Shown: one piece after another, positions 16,999 to 63,056 of the stretch
Layout of the letters: each line of letters begins with the position of its first letter
Position numbering within the stretch: the stretch's first letter is position 1
From: a virus
Taxonomy: Duplodnaviria > Caudoviricetes
Strand: one strand, 5' to 3'
Length of the DNA stretch: 64,000 nt
IMG/VR virus record: IMGVR_UViG_3300028048_000055
Coordinates: 1 to 64,000 of that record
Program-made: the position numbers and the translations under genes
Notes under the pieces: generated by a model
Told to the model about the DNA's origin: nothing
Seen by the model: the letters and a program-made list of their open reading frames with translations, nothing else
Database searches by the model: none

Positions 16999-18189
16999 AT
17001 GATGCAGATACAAGGCAAATACGGTATTGCTGAAGTTTTTACAGATAATGTGTGTACAGAAGCATATACACAAATTCTTAATATTATGAATCAATGTTGG
17101 GCAAGAAATGCTGATATTAAATTTATGCCAGATATTTCGCCCGGACGTGATGCTTTGGTAGGCACTACCATGAAAGTTACCGATAAGGCAGTTCCAAATT
17201 TAATTGGTCCAGATATTGGATGCGGTATGCTTGTCGCAAAGCTTAAGGACAAGTTTATTGAATTTGGAAAACTTGATAAAGTTATCAAGGAAAAGATTCC
17301 ATCCGGTAAAAGTCATAATGATAAAAAACATCGTTATGCTAAAGAATTTGACGAAGAATTTGAAAAACTTATCGCTAATGTTAAGCGTGAAGAACTTCTG
17401 AGTATTTGTAGCCTTGGGTCGGGCAACCATTTCATTGAATGCGATAAGGATGAAGACGGTGCATTCTATATAGTTATTCATTCCGGTTCTCGTCATTTGG
17501 GTGTTGCTACTTGTGAATATTGGCAAAATCTTGCAATTAAGGATTGTGCTGACTTGACAGCAATTCGAGGTGCTGAAATAGCCAAGTATAAGAACCAAGG
17601 AAAGACGGATGCTGAAATTAAGGAACTTATGAAGGATTATGACCATTTCTCTGTTCCTAAGAATCTTTCTTATTTGACTGGTGAACATATGCAGGGTTAT
17701 CTGCATGATATGGAAATTGTCCAGCAGTTTGCCGTTATGAACCGTGCCGCAATGCTCGATGTTATTGTCAAGGAAATGGGTTTCAAGGTTGTCGAAAAGT
17801 TTGAAACTATTCACAACTATATCGATCTTAAGAATATGATTCTCCGTAAGGGTTCTATTTCTGCACAAGAAGGCGAAAGGGTCATTATTCCTATGAATAT
17901 GAGAGATGGTTCTTTGATTTGTGTCGGTAAGGGAAATCCAGATTGGAATTATTCAGCACCTCATGGAGCAGGTCGTTTAATGACCAGAAGTGATGCTAAG
18001 AACTCAATTTCTATGAAGGAGTATAAAGATGCTATGAAAGGAATTTTCACGTCCTGTGTGTCTTCCGCGACGATTGACGAGTCTCCTATGGCTTATAAGC
18101 CGATGGATGAAATCATAGCAAATATTGAACCTACTTGCACTATCGAAAAGATTATCAAGCCGGTTTATAACTTCAAGGCGGCATTTTAA
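16999..18189 (+). CDS. rtcB: RtcB-family RNA ligase
   Basis: MPD, DIGCG, SLGSGNHFIE, HSGSR, HNY, RKG, IPMNM, SAPHGAGR, DESPMAYK motifs. Confidence 0.95.
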   Translation: MMQIQGKYGIAEVFTDNVCTEAYTQILNIMNQCWARNADIKFMPDISPGRDALVGTTMKVTDKAVPNLIGPDIGCGMLVAKLKDKFIEFGKLDKVIKEKIPSGKSHNDKKHRYAKEFDEEFEKLIANVKREELLSICSLGSGNHFIECDKDEDGAFYIVIHSGSRHLGVATCEYWQNLAIKDCADLTAIRGAEIAKYKNQGKTDAEIKELMKDYDHFSVPKNLSYLTGEHMQGYLHDMEIVQQFAVMNRAAMLDVIVKEMGFKVVEKFETIHNYIDLKNMILRKGSISAQEGERVIIPMNMRDGSLICVGKGNPDWNYSAPHGAGRLMTRSDAKNSISMKEYKDAMKGIFTSCVSSATIDESPMAYKPMDEIIANIEPTCTIEKIIKPVYNFKAAF

Positions 18190-30177: not shown

Positions 30178-31635
30178 TGAACTAACTCCGGCTTAAAAGC
30201 CGGAATCTTCTTTTTCGTTTCTACGACCTACCTTGCCGTTTACCATTGCTGGCTTAACGGTAGAGGATAATGTCTCCACGGAGGCCTGTTCCAGGCACTC
30301 GGTACGTTTAATTGTACCAATAAATTTTACGTTCTTGGCGGCATGGATATCCCTGTCCTCGGCATAACCGCAGGCACACCGAAATATTCTATCTGCAAGA
30401 CTTAATGTATTAAGACATCCACAGGCCGTACAAAGCTTGGTAGTGGGATGTGATTTACTAATCTTGAAAGATTTAGTTCCTTCCATGCTTACCAGTTTCG
30501 CCTTGACCCTGCCGAGATACGAGCACTGTACCTGCCTGCCAAACGAGTTACCACACTTCTTACCGTTTTTCTTACTATGTTTCTTCTTTTTCCATTTAAA
30601 AATCATTTCATCCTGGAAATAGACAGTATTGTAGTTGGCAATAAGATAATGTATCAGCTTGTTCGTGGCATCTACTTTCTTATTGGTAAGGTGTTCGTAT
30701 TCCTTCCTGATCTGGTTACGAAGTTTCCAATAACGCTTTGAATCCTTTTGTTTACGATGTAACTGCTTTTGCAGGTAATTCAGGTATTCGCTTTCTCGCA
30801 CATTGCAGTTGAACTTCTCGCCGTCAGACGTGGTTATGTTGTCCTTGATGCCGAAGTCTAGACCGACTTCTTTGTATAATTTATTATTTTTATAATTTTC
30901 TTTATTTAGACAAACCGAAACATGAATGTATATACCGCTTGCTTTCTTGACAATTCTAGCGTCAGCAAGTTCGTAATTATTCAAGTTTAAAATTTGATTT
31001 AAACCGTACACCTTCAAGTTCTTGAAACCGGGTATAGTAATATGGCTGTTGTCTATAATTTTTACACCGCCGGATAAGATAGGTATAGAATTACACTCGG
31101 ATTTAAATTTCAACATACCTATTTTTATACCTTTCTTCTTAGCTTTTGACAGATTGACTATATCCTGCTTGACGTTTGCAACCATTCCACGATGAAGGTA
31201 AACCGGTAATGTAATATTGTCGTATACCTCGTTTTTGTCCTTATCGAAATGCTTTATGTTCTTGTGTTCAAGATAGTTGTAATCAAATATGTCTATATTC
31301 CGTTCTTCGTTATGTTTAGACAAAGCGATCATGTCGTTACGAATCCATTTTGCCTGCTTGAAGAAAACATTAAATTTCCTGAAAGTTTCCGGTTTGGTCT
31401 GGTGGCAATTAACCTTTAACTCAAATATCCTAATTATTTGGGTTTTTCTACGTTCACGTGTTTCAGCTAAGGATTTCCTTATTTGTTCACGTTCAGTATC
31501 TGTTAATTGTTTTCTTGCCATACATTATATTTATAAAAATTATTTTTAATTTTTGACATATTTACAATTTAGGTCATTTTTATTATATTTAATATGTCTG
31601 CTTGAATTACCACCCTAAAGGGTGGAATCTTGCGC
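30177..31635 (-). mobile_element. IS200/IS605-IS607 superfamily non-autonomous TnpB element
   Basis: higher GC than flanks; right end on - strand CCGGCTTTTAAGCCGG hairpin then AGTTAGTTCAC; related hairpin CCACCCT/AGGGTGG at about 31610; no tnpA. Confidence 0.75.
30193..31521 (-). CDS. tnpB: TnpB RNA-guided endonuclease
   Basis: RuvC-I GLDFGIKD, RuvC-II YFQDE, Zn ribbon CTACG/CACG, RuvC-III DRDIHAAKN. Confidence 0.92.
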   Translation of the reverse strand: MARKQLTDTEREQIRKSLAETRERRKTQIIRIFELKVNCHQTKPETFRKFNVFFKQAKWIRNDMIALSKHNEERNIDIFDYNYLEHKNIKHFDKDKNEVYDNITLPVYLHRGMVANVKQDIVNLSKAKKKGIKIGMLKFKSECNSIPILSGGVKIIDNSHITIPGFKNLKVYGLNQILNLNNYELADARIVKKASGIYIHVSVCLNKENYKNNKLYKEVGLDFGIKDNITTSDGEKFNCNVRESEYLNYLQKQLHRKQKDSKRYWKLRNQIRKEYEHLTNKKVDATNKLIHYLIANYNTVYFQDEMIFKWKKKKHSKKNGKKCGNSFGRQVQCSYLGRVKAKLVSMEGTKSFKISKSHPTTKLCTACGCLNTLSLADRIFRCACGYAEDRDIHAAKNVKFIGTIKRTECLEQASVETLSSTVKPAMVNGKVGRRNEKEDSGF

Positions 31636-42680: not shown

Positions 42681-42994
42681 TGTTCCATAGCTCAGTTGGT
42701 AGAGCGACGGACTGTTTGAAATAGACACTTATATTGGAAACGATATATGAAAATCATCGCTAAGTCGGTGAAACCTGTAAAATGGCAACGCCGAGCAAGG
42801 ATTAGAAATAATCTATGTGTAGAGACTTTATACGATGAGCCTAAGTCAGTAATGATATGGCTAAGACAAAGTCCAGACTACAAACGAGTGTCCAATTTGC
42901 GCGGTGGGGGGCTTAACACCCATGCGGATGCTTGGTAACGAAAGTTATAGTAGTATGAATCCGTTGGTCCCTGGTTCGAGTCCAGGTGGAACAG
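42681..42994 (+). tRNA. tRNA-Asn(GTT) interrupted by a group I intron
   Basis: exon1 42681-42716, exon2 42958-42994 form a perfect cloverleaf. Confidence 0.92.
42717..42957 (+). ncRNA. group I intron (241 nt, no ORF)
   Basis: U.G pair at the 5' splice site in P1, terminal G, core elements TCGGTGAAACC, AACGCCGAGC, GTAGAGACT, AAGACAAAGTCC. Confidence 0.9.
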
Positions 42995-43000
42995 CTAACA

Positions 43001-49170: not shown

Positions 49171-49205
49171 GGTTCCTGTGTATAACACAGGGACCTTAAT
49201 TTTTT
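49171..49205 (+). terminator. attenuator terminator 3
   Basis: GGTTCCTGTG/CACAGGGACC plus T-rich tail. Confidence 0.85.
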
Positions 49206-49215
49206 ATATAACTTT

Positions 49216-49289
49216 GGGACTTTAGAATACGTTAGCTAGTTCACCGCCCTTTCACGGCGGAGAATCGGGGGCAGCACCCGGAAGTCCTA
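49216..49289 (+). tRNA. tRNA-Glu(TTC)
   Basis: cloverleaf, T loop GGCAGCA. Confidence 0.85.
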
Positions 49290-49297
49290 CTAATTTT

Positions 49298-51951: not shown

Positions 51952-52071
51952 AATAGCAAAAGCGGTTCCTATAACCAGAGGAATAGCTTAGTTGGTTAGA
52001 GCAACGCAGCAATGCGGAGGCCGTCGGTTCGAGTCCGATTTCCCCTACCATCAAGTTTACTGCTCGCTATT
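51952..52071 (+). ncRNA. TCCTAT scaffold copy 6 enclosing an anticodon-less tRNA body (51977-52050, GCAA loop, CCA)
   Basis: AATAGC/GCTATT, AGCGGT/ACTGCT. Confidence 0.75.
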
Positions 52072-55408: not shown

Positions 55409-55852
55409 ATGAGAAGACTATTTATTATTAGAAAAGATTTACATCTTACAGGCGGTAAACTAGCCGCCATGATAGGACATTGTGCAGAATGTTATTGGAT
55501 GAACTTAATTAAATCTGCCAATCGACCGTTTAATGACGGTCCAGGTACATTAGTATCTTTTGTCATCGACGATGATGTTATGCAAAATTATATTCAAGGT
55601 ATTTTCACTAAGACCATTTGTGAAGCAAAGAACCTTAATCATTTGATGAAGGTTGTTGATATTGCTAAAAAACTTGGTCTTGTTGAAGGTACTGATTACG
55701 GTTTTATCGATGATGTATGTAAGACAGAACTTACTCCAGAATTTACCGATGAAAATGGTGTTGACCGTTGTCGTGTAGGAATCTGGTTTAAACCGTTGTC
55801 GGATGAAATCAGTCATAAGCTTAGTAAGAAATATCAATTATACAAGGGTTGA
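55409..55852 (+). CDS. peptidyl-tRNA hydrolase 2 (Pth2)-like protein
   Basis: IIRKDL...GKLAAMIGH, TKTIC, IDD.C.TE motifs. Confidence 0.85.
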   Translation: MRRLFIIRKDLHLTGGKLAAMIGHCAECYWMNLIKSANRPFNDGPGTLVSFVIDDDVMQNYIQGIFTKTICEAKNLNHLMKVVDIAKKLGLVEGTDYGFIDDVCKTELTPEFTDENGVDRCRVGIWFKPLSDEISHKLSKKYQLYKG

Positions 55853-57285: not shown

Positions 57286-57314
57286 TTTACAAACAGAAAA
57301 TAATTTACTATATT
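57286..57314 (+). promoter_or_regulatory. sigma70-type promoter of tRNA block 5
   Basis: TTTACA-N17-TATATT. Confidence 0.8.
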
Positions 57315-57376
57315 TAACAACGTAAAATAACAAAAAAGAAGAAAAAAATTTTATATATAATATAAAGGTTTAAAAA

Positions 57377-57463
57377 ATGAAGACTCTTAGTTTAACACTT
57401 GTCCTACTCAGTAGCCTGCTCCTCAGCTGGTTATTGCGTCGTAATATAGTGGGAACTAAGTAG
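57377..57463 (+). CDS. attenuator leader peptide 5 MKTLSLTLVLLSSLLLSWLLRRNIVGTK
   Basis: AAGGT SD; L10 (all six codons), S4 (all AGY), W1. Confidence 0.9.
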   Translation: MKTLSLTLVLLSSLLLSWLLRRNIVGTK

Positions 57464-57491
57464 TTCGGTTTTTTAATCGTATGAATTTATA

Positions 57492-57524
57492 AAGGTTCCC
57501 ATAAGTTGGGGACCTTAATTTTTT
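57492..57524 (+). terminator. attenuator terminator 5
   Basis: AAGGTTCCCA/TGGGGACCTT plus T tract. Confidence 0.85.
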
Positions 57525-57528
57525 ATAT

Positions 57529-57600
57529 AGCTCTATGAGGTAACGGTAGCCTACGAGACTCCAAATCTGCGAAATCCCTGTTCGAATCGGGGTAGGGCTG
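57529..57600 (+). tRNA. tRNA-Trp(CCA), imperfect anticodon stem
   Basis: CGAGA-CTCCAAA-TCTGC, G73. Confidence 0.8.
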
Positions 57601-57604
57601 TAAA

Positions 57605-57694
57605 CGGTCTGTGATTGGAATTGGTATACAGCATCGGCTTAAACCCGGTGGCCGAGATAAATACGGATTGGGGGTTCGAGTCCCTTCAGGCCGA
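57605..57694 (+). tRNA. tRNA-Leu(TAA)
   Basis: class II cloverleaf. Confidence 0.88.
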
Positions 57695-57704
57695 TAAAAT
57701 ATAA

Positions 57705-57786
57705 CGGTATGTGATGGAATGTATACATGCGGGCTTGAGAGGTCCGTGCCCAAAAGGGATTGGGAGTGCGAATCTCCCCGTACCGA
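57705..57786 (+). tRNA. tRNA-Leu(GAG)
   Basis: class II cloverleaf. Confidence 0.85.
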
Positions 57787-57794
57787 TAACATAA

Positions 57795-57878
57795 CGTCAG
57801 GTGGAGTAATTGGTAGCCTCGCAAGAACGAGAGTCTTGTGGTAGAAATACCGTGAGGGTTCGAGTCCCTCTCTGACGA
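57795..57878 (+). tRNA. tRNA-Leu(GAG) with A32/C33
   Basis: loop ACGAGAG, A73, long variable arm. Confidence 0.78.
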
Positions 57879-57887
57879 TAAATTAAT

Positions 57888-57972
57888 GGAAGCGTAGGCT
57901 AATAGGTAAGCCAGCACTTTGCTAAAGTGCCGTGGAGAAATCTGCTTGAAGGTTCGAGCCCTTCCGCTTCCG
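57888..57972 (+). tRNA. tRNA-Ser(GCT)
   Basis: class II cloverleaf, G73. Confidence 0.92.
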
Positions 57973-57980
57973 CTACATAT

Positions 57981-58092
57981 TGCTTGGTGGTGAAAATCGT
58001 GTGGCCTAGGCGCATCGTAGGTAAACACGCCCCGCATAGTAGGGGTGTCTACTTAGCTGGTAGACTTGTTGGTTCGAGTCCAACCTAAGCAG
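57981..58092 (+). tRNA. aberrant 112-nt class II tRNA-like RNA (hairpin inserted in D loop, 8-nt anticodon loop GCATAGTA)
   Basis: good acceptor, T and variable arms. Confidence 0.55.
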
Positions 58093-58100
58093 TTAAATAT

Positions 58101-58174
58101 CCACTGGTGATGGAACTGGCATACATATCGGATTCAAAACCCGAGTTTTGAGGGTTCGACTCCCTCCTGGTGGA
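58101..58174 (+). tRNA. tRNA-Leu(CAA), short variable loop
   Basis: cloverleaf, A73. Confidence 0.85.
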
Positions 58175-58180
58175 CTAAAT

Positions 58181-58265
58181 GGCCGAGTGATGGAACTGGC
58201 GAGACAACGGTGCCTTAGAAGCATCGGTCCGAAAGGGCGTGTGGGTTCGAATCCCACCTTGGCCA
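58181..58265 (+). tRNA. tRNA-Leu(TAG)
   Basis: class II cloverleaf. Confidence 0.9.
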
Positions 58266-58267
58266 CT

Positions 58268-58489
58268 ATGACTAACTTTGAAATGTGAAAGGAATCGCTC
58301 ACTGCAGAAGAGTGGGCAAATAAATTTGTAGAACTGGATTATTGTCCAAAATGTCCAGCCTATAGTTTTTGTAGAGATTGTGATATATTGAATCCAACAA
58401 AGTTAGATGGAACAGTCAATACAGAAGAATGTAATAATACTTGTAGAAAGAGATTTCTTACTTGGGCAAATAAAGATGCACAATGTTAA
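58268..58489 (+). CDS. Cys-rich small protein with in-frame TGA at codon 7
   Basis: MTNFEM*KESLTAEEWANKF...CPKCPAYSFC...CRKRFLTWAN. Confidence 0.5.
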
Positions 58490-58799
58490 ACATGCATATG
58501 TATATTGTAATGATAAGCTTGCGGGTCATTTGTTAAGAAACCGCAAGCATTATGTTTTTATATACGATAAAGATTATGTTGGTCCATCTATTGCCATAAA
58601 TTTTCCTAAATCAACTAGATACTATTCTAGTCCGTATTTATTTCCGTATTTTTATGGATTGTTGCCAGAAGGTGAAAATAAAGAATTCTATTGCAAAATA
58701 TTTCACCTTAATCCAGATGATAATTTTGAAATCCTGACAAATTTAGCATGGCATGAAACAATTGGTCCTGTTACTGTAAGACCTTTCAAAAACGGTTGA
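58476..58799 (+). CDS. stand-alone HipA N-terminal domain (HipS-like) protein
   Basis: AG.L...YVFIYD..Y, LFPYFYGLLPEG, D.F.IL, ETIGPVTV. Confidence 0.85.
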   Translation: MHNVKHAYVYCNDKLAGHLLRNRKHYVFIYDKDYVGPSIAINFPKSTRYYSSPYLFPYFYGLLPEGENKEFYCKIFHLNPDDNFEILTNLAWHETIGPVTVRPFKNG

Positions 58800-58845: not shown

Positions 58846-59250
58846 ATGTATACATGTAATCCAGATAGAGTTTTTCGTGGACCACGTGAAGCACAAGAAC
58901 ATGATATGGTAGTTGACTTTACTCATGAAGTTGCTAAAAAACTTGAAAAACTTAAATTACCTACATTTGGTAATAATGAAAAATTATTTTCATATATCGA
59001 ACGTGAAAACAGAGATAAGTTATATTTGTCATTTAAATGTGATTATAGAAAAGAATCCATTTTCGTAGAAATTCCTTCAGTTGATTTTGGTATATCTTTA
59101 CACGTAAAAGATTTAAAAAAGATTAAAACTAAACTTAAACCTGATGGTTATCTTATAAAAGCTATTAATGAAGGTGAAGATTTAATAAGGCAAATTCGTA
59201 GTACAATAAAGTCGAAAATTCATACAGCAATTACATTGGATGAAGTATAA
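58846..59250 (+). CDS. hypothetical protein, tandem paralog 1
   Basis: FRGP.EA...A.KLEK...GYLIKAI.E...LDEV. Confidence 0.7.
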   Translation: MYTCNPDRVFRGPREAQEHDMVVDFTHEVAKKLEKLKLPTFGNNEKLFSYIERENRDKLYLSFKCDYRKESIFVEIPSVDFGISLHVKDLKKIKTKLKPDGYLIKAINEGEDLIRQIRSTIKSKIHTAITLDEV

Positions 59251-59702
59251 TGCATGAAATTATAGATGATAGACAATGGCGTGGACCGACTGATGCTGTA
59301 ACATTTAAGAGAACTTGTGAAAATAATCATAGTTTAGCACAAAAACTTGAAAAACAAGGTATTAAGACTAGTGGTATAAATGATGAACTTTATGCTTGTT
59401 TAAAAATTAATAAGCATCCATTATTAATACAACCTAGTTGGCGTTATATTGATTGTTGGGGTTCGCATCCTAGTGGTAAAGATCCATATGATGTTAATAT
59501 TATGATTCCTGCGGTAGGAGTAACAATTCCTGTTAAACTTGCTAAAATTAAAAAGACATTTGAATCTAAAACTTATCTTGTAAAAGCATTGACCGAATAT
59601 AGTGCGGCATTAGCTGCTGCAAAAAGTAAAAAAGCAAAAAAATCTGTAGACTTGGCATATACAAGTATAATTGAATCAGCTCAAGCATTTGATGAGGCAT
59701 AA
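59250..59702 (+). CDS. hypothetical protein, tandem paralog 2
   Basis: WRGP...KLEKQGI...PSWRY...DPYDVNI. Confidence 0.7.
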   Translation: MHEIIDDRQWRGPTDAVTFKRTCENNHSLAQKLEKQGIKTSGINDELYACLKINKHPLLIQPSWRYIDCWGSHPSGKDPYDVNIMIPAVGVTIPVKLAKIKKTFESKTYLVKALTEYSAALAAAKSKKAKKSVDLAYTSIIESAQAFDEA

Positions 59703-59704
59703 TT

Positions 59705-60130
59705 ATGCATATAATTGAAAGAGATAGTACATGGCGTGGTCCAAGCGAAGCTGTGGCATTCAATAGAGAGTGTAATGATAAGCATGATCTTGCTGTAAAA
59801 CTTGAAAAACAAGGTATTATAACTGAAGGTGTAAATACTACACTTTATGGTTATATTAACTTAGGAGAAAGATTTTTACGAATAATTCCTTCTTGGCGTT
59901 ATGATGGCTATTGGAGAACTAAAGATGGTAAATCAGATCCATATGATGTCAATATTGAAATTCCATCATTTGATGTAACTATTCCGGCTAAGCTTGATAA
60001 TATTAAGAAAGTATTTAGTTCTGACGGATATCTTATGAAAGCTATTAAAGAATATGAAGCATCTTTGCATACTGCAAAGCTTGTATTCGCAAATACTATT
60101 AAAGCAGCACAAGCATTGGATGAAGTATAA
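59705..60130 (+). CDS. hypothetical protein, tandem paralog 3
   Basis: WRGP...KLEKQGI...PSWRY...DPYDVNI. Confidence 0.7.
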   Translation: MHIIERDSTWRGPSEAVAFNRECNDKHDLAVKLEKQGIITEGVNTTLYGYINLGERFLRIIPSWRYDGYWRTKDGKSDPYDVNIEIPSFDVTIPAKLDNIKKVFSSDGYLMKAIKEYEASLHTAKLVFANTIKAAQALDEV

Positions 60131-62972: not shown

Positions 62973-63056
62973 GGAAGAGCATCAGATTGGCGACTCAAGC
63001 TGTCCTGAAAACAGTAGTTCCGCAAGGGCTTGTGGGTTCAAATCCCTCCTCTTCCT
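62973..63056 (+). tRNA. tRNA-Ser(TGA) with C33
   Basis: class II cloverleaf, loop CCTGAAA. Confidence 0.8.

Follow-up and report, generated by a model that had tools for sequence, protein, structure and literature searches.

Genes for transfer RNAs (tRNAs) are usually seen as promoter-controlled, by growth rate and the stringent response, and discussion of phage tRNA arrays is usually confined to codon usage or to escape from tRNA-targeting defences. Multivalent leader-peptide attenuators occur in enterobacteria, such as the ilvGMEDA leader (Leu, Val, Ile) and thrL (Thr, Ile), and leuL carries four Leu codons. The pheST attenuator of Escherichia coli places an aminoacyl-tRNA synthetase operon under leader-peptide control, with one amino acid sensed. 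T-boxes, which control synthetase and amino-acid genes, bind uncharged tRNA directly via a specifier codon and need no translation. The classical model of leader-peptide attenuation is that of trpL/pheL (PMC3082878). An accessory tRNA array, the trn operon of Anabaena sp. PCC 7120, stays silent unless translation is impaired (PMC8421152; PMC10272220) and is controlled by a ribbon-helix-helix protein repressor, TrcR (PMC10272220). The original 2021 paper on this array makes no mention of a leader peptide, attenuation or a terminator. Here, a window of 64,000 nucleotides (nt) was analysed, the first 64 kb of the 165-kb virus record IMGVR_UViG_3300028048_000055 (Duplodnaviria; Caudoviricetes; 32% G+C). 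It holds a tRNA island with six units, each composed of a leader open reading frame (ORF), a terminator hairpin with T-run and a tRNA block. The feature under study (57377-57524) belongs to unit 5. Judged from its sequence, this unit is likely a leader-peptide (ribosome-mediated) transcription attenuator that gates a phage tRNA operon, and the phage probably restricts synthesis of the unit-5 tRNAs to times when decoding of Leu, Ser (AGY) or Trp codons is slow.

In common with the enterobacterial amino-acid attenuators, unit 5 has a promoter-proximal short ORF led by a Shine-Dalgarno (SD) sequence, and an intrinsic terminator. All parts lie on the plus strand. A sigma70-like promoter (TTTACA, 17 nt, TATATT) was located by promoter scan at 57286-57314, 63 nt upstream of the ATG with no gene between. 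Both hexamers are kept in relatives and the spacer is variable. Transcription would start near 57321. The A/U-rich 5' untranslated region (UTR; 57322-57376) contains the SD sequence AAAGG at 57365-57369, 7 nt before the ATG. SD-like 4-mers were found for 54% of the long ORFs of the phage (background 11%), and TATAAAGG together with the ATG was invariant in 11 distinct homologues. The leader ORF (57377-57463; 28 codons and TAG) reads MKTLSLTLVLLSSLLLSWLLRRNIVGTK. More than 20 homologous loci preserve this ORF in frame and at 28-30 codons, even where a 3-nt indel has occurred. The terminator hairpin (57492-57516) has a 10-bp stem with a folding free energy (ΔG) of -15.0. Its 5' arm is AAGGTTCCCA (region 3; 57492-57501) and its 3' arm TGGGGACCTT (57507-57516), which is followed by AATTTTTT, so that region 4 with the T-run extends over 57507-57524. 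The regulated tRNA block (57528-58266, called by ARAGORN) comprises tRNA-Trp(cca) at 57528, tRNA-Leu(taa) at 57605, two copies of tRNA-Leu(gag) at 57705-57786 and 57795-57878, tRNA-Ser(gct) at 57888, tRNA-Leu(caa) at 58101 and tRNA-Leu(tag) at 58181. tRNA-Trp starts 4 nt past the T-run. This gap leaves no room for a promoter of the tRNAs' own, so that they would be transcribed only through the terminator.

The enterobacterial attenuators also resemble unit 5 in carrying several kinds of control codons across about 17 codons. In the preliminary description of the window, ten Leu codons of all six kinds, four AGY Ser codons and one Trp codon had been counted in the leader, and the ORF at 57377-57463 gave the same numbers: CTT ×2, TTA ×2, CTA, CTC ×3, CTG and TTG for Leu, AGT ×2 and AGC ×2 for Ser, and TGG ×1 for Trp. 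Cognate codons were assigned by standard wobble rules, and the expectation was taken from the codon usage of the long ORFs of the phage. The 15 cognate codons (10 Leu, 4 Ser AGY, 1 Trp) all lie within codons 4-20, the last of them being codon 20. They account for 15 of the 27 internal leader codons, with 10.7% expected (binomial P = 1.4e-8). For comparison, all small ORFs of 18-40 codons were collected from both strands of the 165-kb genome (n = 1571), and the unit-5 leader ranked first among them for its codon set. The presence of all six Leu synonyms among ten Leu codons has P = 0.02 from genome usage, and at least three CTC codons P = 0.011. CTC, CTA and CTG, each 4-5% of the Leu codons of the phage, all occur in the leader; they are the codons served by the two tRNA-Leu(gag) and by tRNA-Leu(tag). 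Ser codons are AGY in four of four cases, with a genome share of 0.34. A coverage test (at least one leader codon for each block anticodon) barely discriminates: the unit-5 leader covers its block, but so do 27 of the 1571 small ORFs.

The same relation between leader and block was found across the island. A promoter/5' UTR cassette (-35 TTTACA or TTGACA, 17 nt, -10 TATATT, A/U-rich UTR, TATAAAGG, ATG) occurs five times, before units 1, 3, 4, 5 and 6, and behind it the short leader ORF differs from unit to unit. Unit 2 has no cassette; its leader tail and terminator are paralogous to those of unit 1. In a matrix of leader codons by unit, the diagonal was highest for units 2-6 (0.50, 0.32, 0.59, 0.56 and 0.64). 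Four of these five leaders ranked first among the 1571 small ORFs and one tied for first. For unit 1, about 15 of 19 leader codons match the own block by eye. Synonymous choice was tested with amino-acid composition ignored, using only amino acids for which the block reads some of the synonyms. Over the six leaders, 37 of 44 informative codons were synonyms that the own block reads (23 expected, P ~5e-6). Examples are Gln CAG (3/3) and Ser TCN (6/6) in unit 6, Lys AAG (3/3) in unit 4 and Ala GCR (6/6) in unit 3. That synonymous choice tracks the block anticodons argues strongly against these ORFs being peptides of merely odd composition. The sister leaders are not hydrophobic. They are rich in Asn/Pro, Ala/Glu, Asp/Arg/Gly/His/Lys or Tyr/Cys/Ser/Gln, and each composition fits the own block.

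Alternative 2:3 and 3:4 helices, with region 2 adjoining the stop codon, are a further feature shared with the enterobacterial attenuators, as a 1:2 helix may be. Region 1 (57382-57404, codons 3-9) is the 5' strand of the 1:2 hairpin in the minimum free energy (MFE) and centroid folds. Region 2 (57445-57465) spans the last codons and the stop, and can pair with region 1 or region 3. Its core GTGGGAACT (57449-57457) corresponds to codons 25-27 and ends 3 nt before the stop. A pairing of sequence near the stop with the terminator had been proposed in the preliminary description, and was recovered between GTGGGAACT and GGTTCCCAT (57494-57502) with 9 pairs (7 Watson-Crick, 2 G-U). The ΔG of 2000 dinucleotide shuffles was -5.8 +/- 2.0, whereas that of the 2:3 duplex is -14.6 kcal/mol (P = 0.0015). 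In each of units 2-6, the strongest partner for the terminator 5' arm overlaps or directly adjoins the stop codon of the leader (P = 0.014, 0.011, 0.002, 0.0015 and 0.036). In unit 1, pairing of the outer terminator arm was not significant (P = 0.66); by eye, a region 2 TAGTTTGTTTCAT that overlaps the stop pairs with ATGAGACAAACT of the inner hairpin part. The leader-terminator RNA of unit 5 folds with z = -4.3 relative to shuffles. In the free RNA, region 1 is paired with region 2 and the terminator is formed (MFE and centroid fold). The sister units 2 and 6 have no 1:2 hairpin.

Nascent RNA was folded because an equilibrium fold of the full leader cannot show the switch. RNA ending before region 4 was used, and a ribosome footprint of 30 nt was masked codon by codon. 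Without a ribosome, the probability of the 2:3 helix, P(2:3), was 0.00. With helices that enclose the ribosome disallowed, P(2:3) was about 0.95 for every A-site position from codon 1 to codon 20 and 0.00 from codon 22 on. When enclosing helices were allowed, P(2:3) was high at codons 1-13 and 20, and 0.01-0.19 at codons 15-19. The boundary between antitermination and termination in the mask model coincides with the last cognate codon in units 2-6.

From these parts we infer a translated leader, coupling of transcription and translation, a kinetic competition of helices and a physiological trigger, as follows. Host RNA polymerase would start at the promoter at 57286-57314, and a ribosome would load on the 28-codon leader. 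In codons 4-20 it would meet mostly codons read by the seven downstream tRNAs. If decoding is fast, the ribosome would reach codon 22 or beyond and cover region 2 (57449-57457), so that 3:4 pairs and transcription stops at the T-run, 4 nt before tRNA-Trp. A shortage of any charged tRNA for Leu, Ser (AGY) or Trp would make the ribosome lag in codons 4-20 and occupy region 1. The free region 2 would then capture region 3 as it emerges, no terminator would form, and transcription would read through into the tRNA genes. With no ribosome, 1:2 would pair and transcription would terminate; the default state would thus be off, as in the enterobacterial attenuators, in which termination is likewise the default without translation. 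The tRNA product would relieve the slow-decoding signal, which would give a direct negative-feedback loop on the supply of this tRNA group. As the trigger, host tRNAs might be depleted or cleaved in the course of infection; the loop might also serve plain dosage control.

Relatives provided natural experiments. IMG/VR and JGI metagenome contigs were scanned for the UTR motif and the terminator; over 20 homologous loci were recovered, and the relatives sampled include two complete genomes. The complete relatives in IMG/VR (G001, G002) are about 415-424 kb long with terminal repeats, which indicates that the source of the window is a huge uncultured phage. Three types of unit 5 were distinguished. 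Type A leaders (window, G001, L012, L028, L033, L038, L041, L049 and others) contain no Gln or Cys codons, and their blocks are without tRNA-Gln and tRNA-Cys. Type B leaders (G002, G003, L010, L014, L029, L052 and others) contain CAG ×2, TGT and TGC, and their blocks include tRNA-Gln(ctg) and tRNA-Cys(gca). The type C leader (L047) contains TGT ×2 and no Gln codon, and precedes a block with tRNA-Cys(gca) only. A reciprocal pattern was seen in unit 6. Where this unit holds tRNA-Gln(ctg) and tRNA-Cys(gca) (window, G001), its leader has CAG ×3 and three to four Cys codons. In G002, with the Gln and Cys tRNAs in unit 5, the unit-6 leader has no Cys codon and its sole Gln codon is CAA. The unit-6 leader of G001 has ATT ×4 alongside an extra tRNA-Ile(gat). 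Leader codons thus shift with tRNA content in units 5 and 6, which indicates that leaders are re-written when tRNA genes move. Among type A loci, control positions swap almost only to cognate codons (CTC/CTT, AGT/AGC, TTA/TTG; CTG/TTG in one locus), and most non-control positions (2, 3, 7, 23, 28) vary in amino acid. For the unit-5 homologues of types B and C, which are diverged, the model places the boundary no more than 1-2 codons from where the main cognate run ends; in type C, the ORF continues for another 11 codons.

In an alignment of 11 distinct homologues, the 2:3 and 3:4 helices were both 100% paired. A C-to-U change at column 154 (region 3) is accompanied by G-to-A changes at column 102, its 2:3 partner, and at column 164, its 3:4 partner. 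Such a three-way compensation is to be expected if two mutually exclusive helices form a switch. The core of the 1:2 helix (AGUUU/GGACU) is invariant in relatives.

Several points weigh against reading unit 5 as an attenuator that answers to its own tRNAs. With the ribosome masked on the full leader, the terminator is favoured at equilibrium at almost every ribosome position, with a probability of at least 0.95; a dip to 0.57-0.72 occurs at codons 9-10 only. Because equilibrium favours the terminator almost throughout, the switch must be kinetic. In the trp leader the terminator likewise wins at equilibrium and the choice is kinetic. Stalls at codons 15-19 give no antitermination in the nascent-RNA model when enclosing helices are allowed. 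Of the 27 internal leader codons, 12 are non-cognate (e.g. CGT ×2, ACT, ACA) and could stall ribosomes too. The 1:2 helix derived from the window is 79% paired in relatives (outer helix) and shows little co-variation. The three-way compensation is essentially one evolutionary event, and structural co-variation and Gln/Cys shifts together amount to few independent events in two or three lineages of one phage clade. Coupling of transcription and translation is an assumption, and the analysis is based on sequence. Amino-acid starvation would also trigger read-through, in which case extra tRNA is of no help.

The last point leads to a variant in which unit 5 is a true attenuator, but the signal is amino-acid starvation or general translation stress rather than the supply of these tRNAs. 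Stalling reports a lack of charged tRNA whatever the cause of the shortage, and in Anabaena it is general translational stress that switches the tRNA array on (PMC8421152, PMC10272220). Against this stands the match at the level of anticodons (AGY not TCN, CAG not CAA), which amino-acid sensing does not require. Leader codons also follow tRNA genes that move between units, and amino-acid starvation is not relieved by extra tRNA. We regard this variant as very unlikely. A further alternative accepts the leader as a translated sensor, but places the output in precursor processing, RNA stability or access of Rho, the hairpin being mainly a structural or processing element. It draws on the equilibrium preference for the terminator, on the heavy processing of tRNA precursors and on the fact that termination is inferred from sequence. 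The hairpin has the form of a canonical intrinsic terminator (10 pairs, then AATTTTTT), the three-way compensation preserves exactly the two exclusive helices 2:3 and 3:4, and the ribosome-position boundary fits classical attenuation geometry in five units and three homologue types. This alternative therefore appears unlikely.

The preliminary description had also remarked that the peptide looks like a signal peptide and would be mis-annotated. The resemblance is a fair one: in the encoded peptide, a basic N-terminus precedes a hydrophobic core rich in Leu, and relatives conserve the ORF. The ORF could accordingly specify a functional small hydrophobic protein (a signal or membrane peptide); the hairpin would then be an ordinary terminator or a site of processing, and leader and tRNAs would match by coincidence. 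The synonymous codons match the block anticodons over six leaders (P ~5e-6), which does not fit such a protein, and neither do the non-hydrophobic sister leaders with compositions that suit their own blocks. Polar Gln and Cys residues appear in the hydrophobic core in precisely those loci whose block includes tRNA-Gln and tRNA-Cys. The synonymous-codon test and the Gln/Cys co-variation both argue against a peptide function. A constitutive terminator would moreover silence tRNAs that have no promoter of their own. A functional small protein is thus extremely improbable. The attenuator proposed for unit 5 in the preliminary description is supported by the promoter, the SD-led ORF, the matched codons, the terminator, the alternative helix and the tracking of tRNA content. 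As the leaders resemble small secreted or membrane peptides, mis-annotation is to be expected.

Unit 5 differs from the enterobacterial attenuators in several respects. The targets are tRNAs and not biosynthetic enzymes, so that the product would act directly on the sensed quantity. The control codons match anticodons (Ser AGY only, all Leu isoacceptors) and not an amino acid. The system is phage-borne, with six units in one island, five of them with a common promoter/UTR cassette. With pheST it would share leader-peptide attenuation on a translation-apparatus gene instead of an amino-acid pathway; in the phage, the target is a tRNA block, and three amino acids would be sensed through six anticodons. 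Like a T-box, the unit would sense the state of specific tRNA and act by a terminator/antiterminator switch, but its sensor is a translated ORF. A cmscan of 42000-64000 at E <= 0.1 gave no Leu_leader, Thr_leader, His_leader, Trp_leader or T-box match. It returned tRNAs and one sub-threshold small RNA match (ncS54, 24.5 bits; gathering score 43).

The Anabaena trn array is the nearest published functional analogue found. In common are an accessory tRNA array whose default state is, or in the phage would be, silent, and an RtcB, encoded in the phage at 16999-18189; rtcB-type repair genes occur near tRNA arrays of the Anabaena type (PMC8421152; PMC10272220). The Anabaena array has one switch as a whole, whereas the phage has a codon-matched switch per block. 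A leader with Phe codons before pheU/pheV of E. coli was considered as a precedent and rejected: in K-12, the sequence upstream of pheV contains no Phe-rich ORF, and the tRNA directly follows a promoter. The full-text literature searched, from which most subscription journals were absent, yielded no description of tRNA genes under leader-peptide control. Compared with the known leader-peptide attenuators, the tRNA-gene target, the match at the anticodon level and the separate unit per tRNA block appear to be new.

All seven tRNAs listed for the unit-5 block in the preliminary description are present. Missing from that list is an unannotated tRNA-like element of 127 nt at 57974-58100, downstream of tRNA-Ser(gct) and upstream of tRNA-Leu(caa). 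Its ends are complementary in the manner of an acceptor stem, and it contains a T-arm TTGGTTCGAGTCCAA and a hairpin like a long variable arm. Default ARAGORN made no call for this element, Rfam gave nothing credible, and it is absent from the blocks of relatives. It may be a degenerate or unusual class II tRNA. Both tRNA-Leu(gag) genes were called by ARAGORN and had no match to the Rfam tRNA model at E <= 0.1. tRNA-Leu(taa) had its best Rfam score as tRNA-Sec, below the tRNA-Sec threshold. These three tRNAs may be atypical class II tRNAs.

In the window, ARAGORN called 38 tRNA genes between 43.1 and 63.2 kb, all on the plus strand and grouped in blocks. A few additional tRNAs were obtained with Rfam and relaxed ARAGORN, including Ser(tga) at 62973. 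The first tRNA after attenuator 1 (42681-42995) is apparently interrupted in its anticodon loop by some 240 nt of inserted sequence, which may be an intron that contains a small ORF. It was called by intron-aware ARAGORN only, and the anticodon assigned to it is uncertain. Between the terminator of unit 3 and the first tRNA-Ala lie about 100 structured bases (49196-49297), including a G+C-rich hairpin (CCGCC...GGCGG). The 5' UTR of unit 4 contains a tRNA-like gene (51977-52047; Rfam tRNA, 47.8 bits) between promoter and leader, and relatives keep this gene at the same place. Being upstream of the unit-4 leader, it would be transcribed whether or not the attenuator terminates.

Among the protein genes of the island and its surroundings, besides that of the RtcB tRNA ligase, are those for a PTH2 peptidyl-tRNA hydrolase (55409-55852) and for a stand-alone protein resembling the HipA N-terminal domain (58407-58799). 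Three paralogous ORFs of 134-150 amino acids, arranged in tandem between units 5 and 6 (58846-60130), share an N-terminal motif (...W/F-RGP...) and gave no Pfam match. A TnpB/Cas12f-like protein is encoded at 30193-31521 on the minus strand. Pfam searches of six large ORFs gave a GH10 domain as the sole taxonomic anchor, and blastn of the region against 50,697 phage records gave matches of tRNA size only. The use of promoters and SD sequences suggests a host with sigma70-type promoters and SD-led initiation.

An unrelated uncultured phage, LR756511.1 (L060; 595 kb, 41% G+C), was checked independently. At 17408-17491 it has an SD-led GTG ORF, VHTFSASLRLSSYSLSSLLYSNVRRGT, upstream of a tRNA block with Ser ×4, Leu ×5 and Tyr ×2. 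In this ORF, 15 of 26 codons are cognate, with 18% expected (P = 9e-6), and a strong terminator follows (region 17408-17588). A possible extra TTGACA promoter was seen past the terminator. With a cognate leader and a terminator in an unrelated phage, the design seems to recur beyond the clade of the window.

Tentatively, and as an idea that we hold somewhat more doubtful than probable, huge phages may carry a modular, isoacceptor-resolved tRNA homeostat. Each tRNA operon would have its codon-matched leader, decoding speed would be measured codon by codon and depleted tRNAs would be re-supplied. The homeostat would work with RtcB and PTH2, its leaders would be re-written on tRNA moves, and it would recur in unrelated huge phages. 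Depletion could come from anticodon nucleases of the host or from the phage's own host shut-off. Apart from the homeostat, the attenuator reading would, if it holds, offer compact, programmable codon-specific sensors for synthetic biology. It would explain why the arrays are cut into blocks grouped by amino acid, and it would predict the response of the phage to anticodon nucleases. The feedback loop between the ribosome and tRNA gene expression would be closed. To gauge decoding speed on a chosen set of codons through a translated sensor, and to respond by transcribing the tRNAs that fit, would be a regulatory logic new to tRNA supply.

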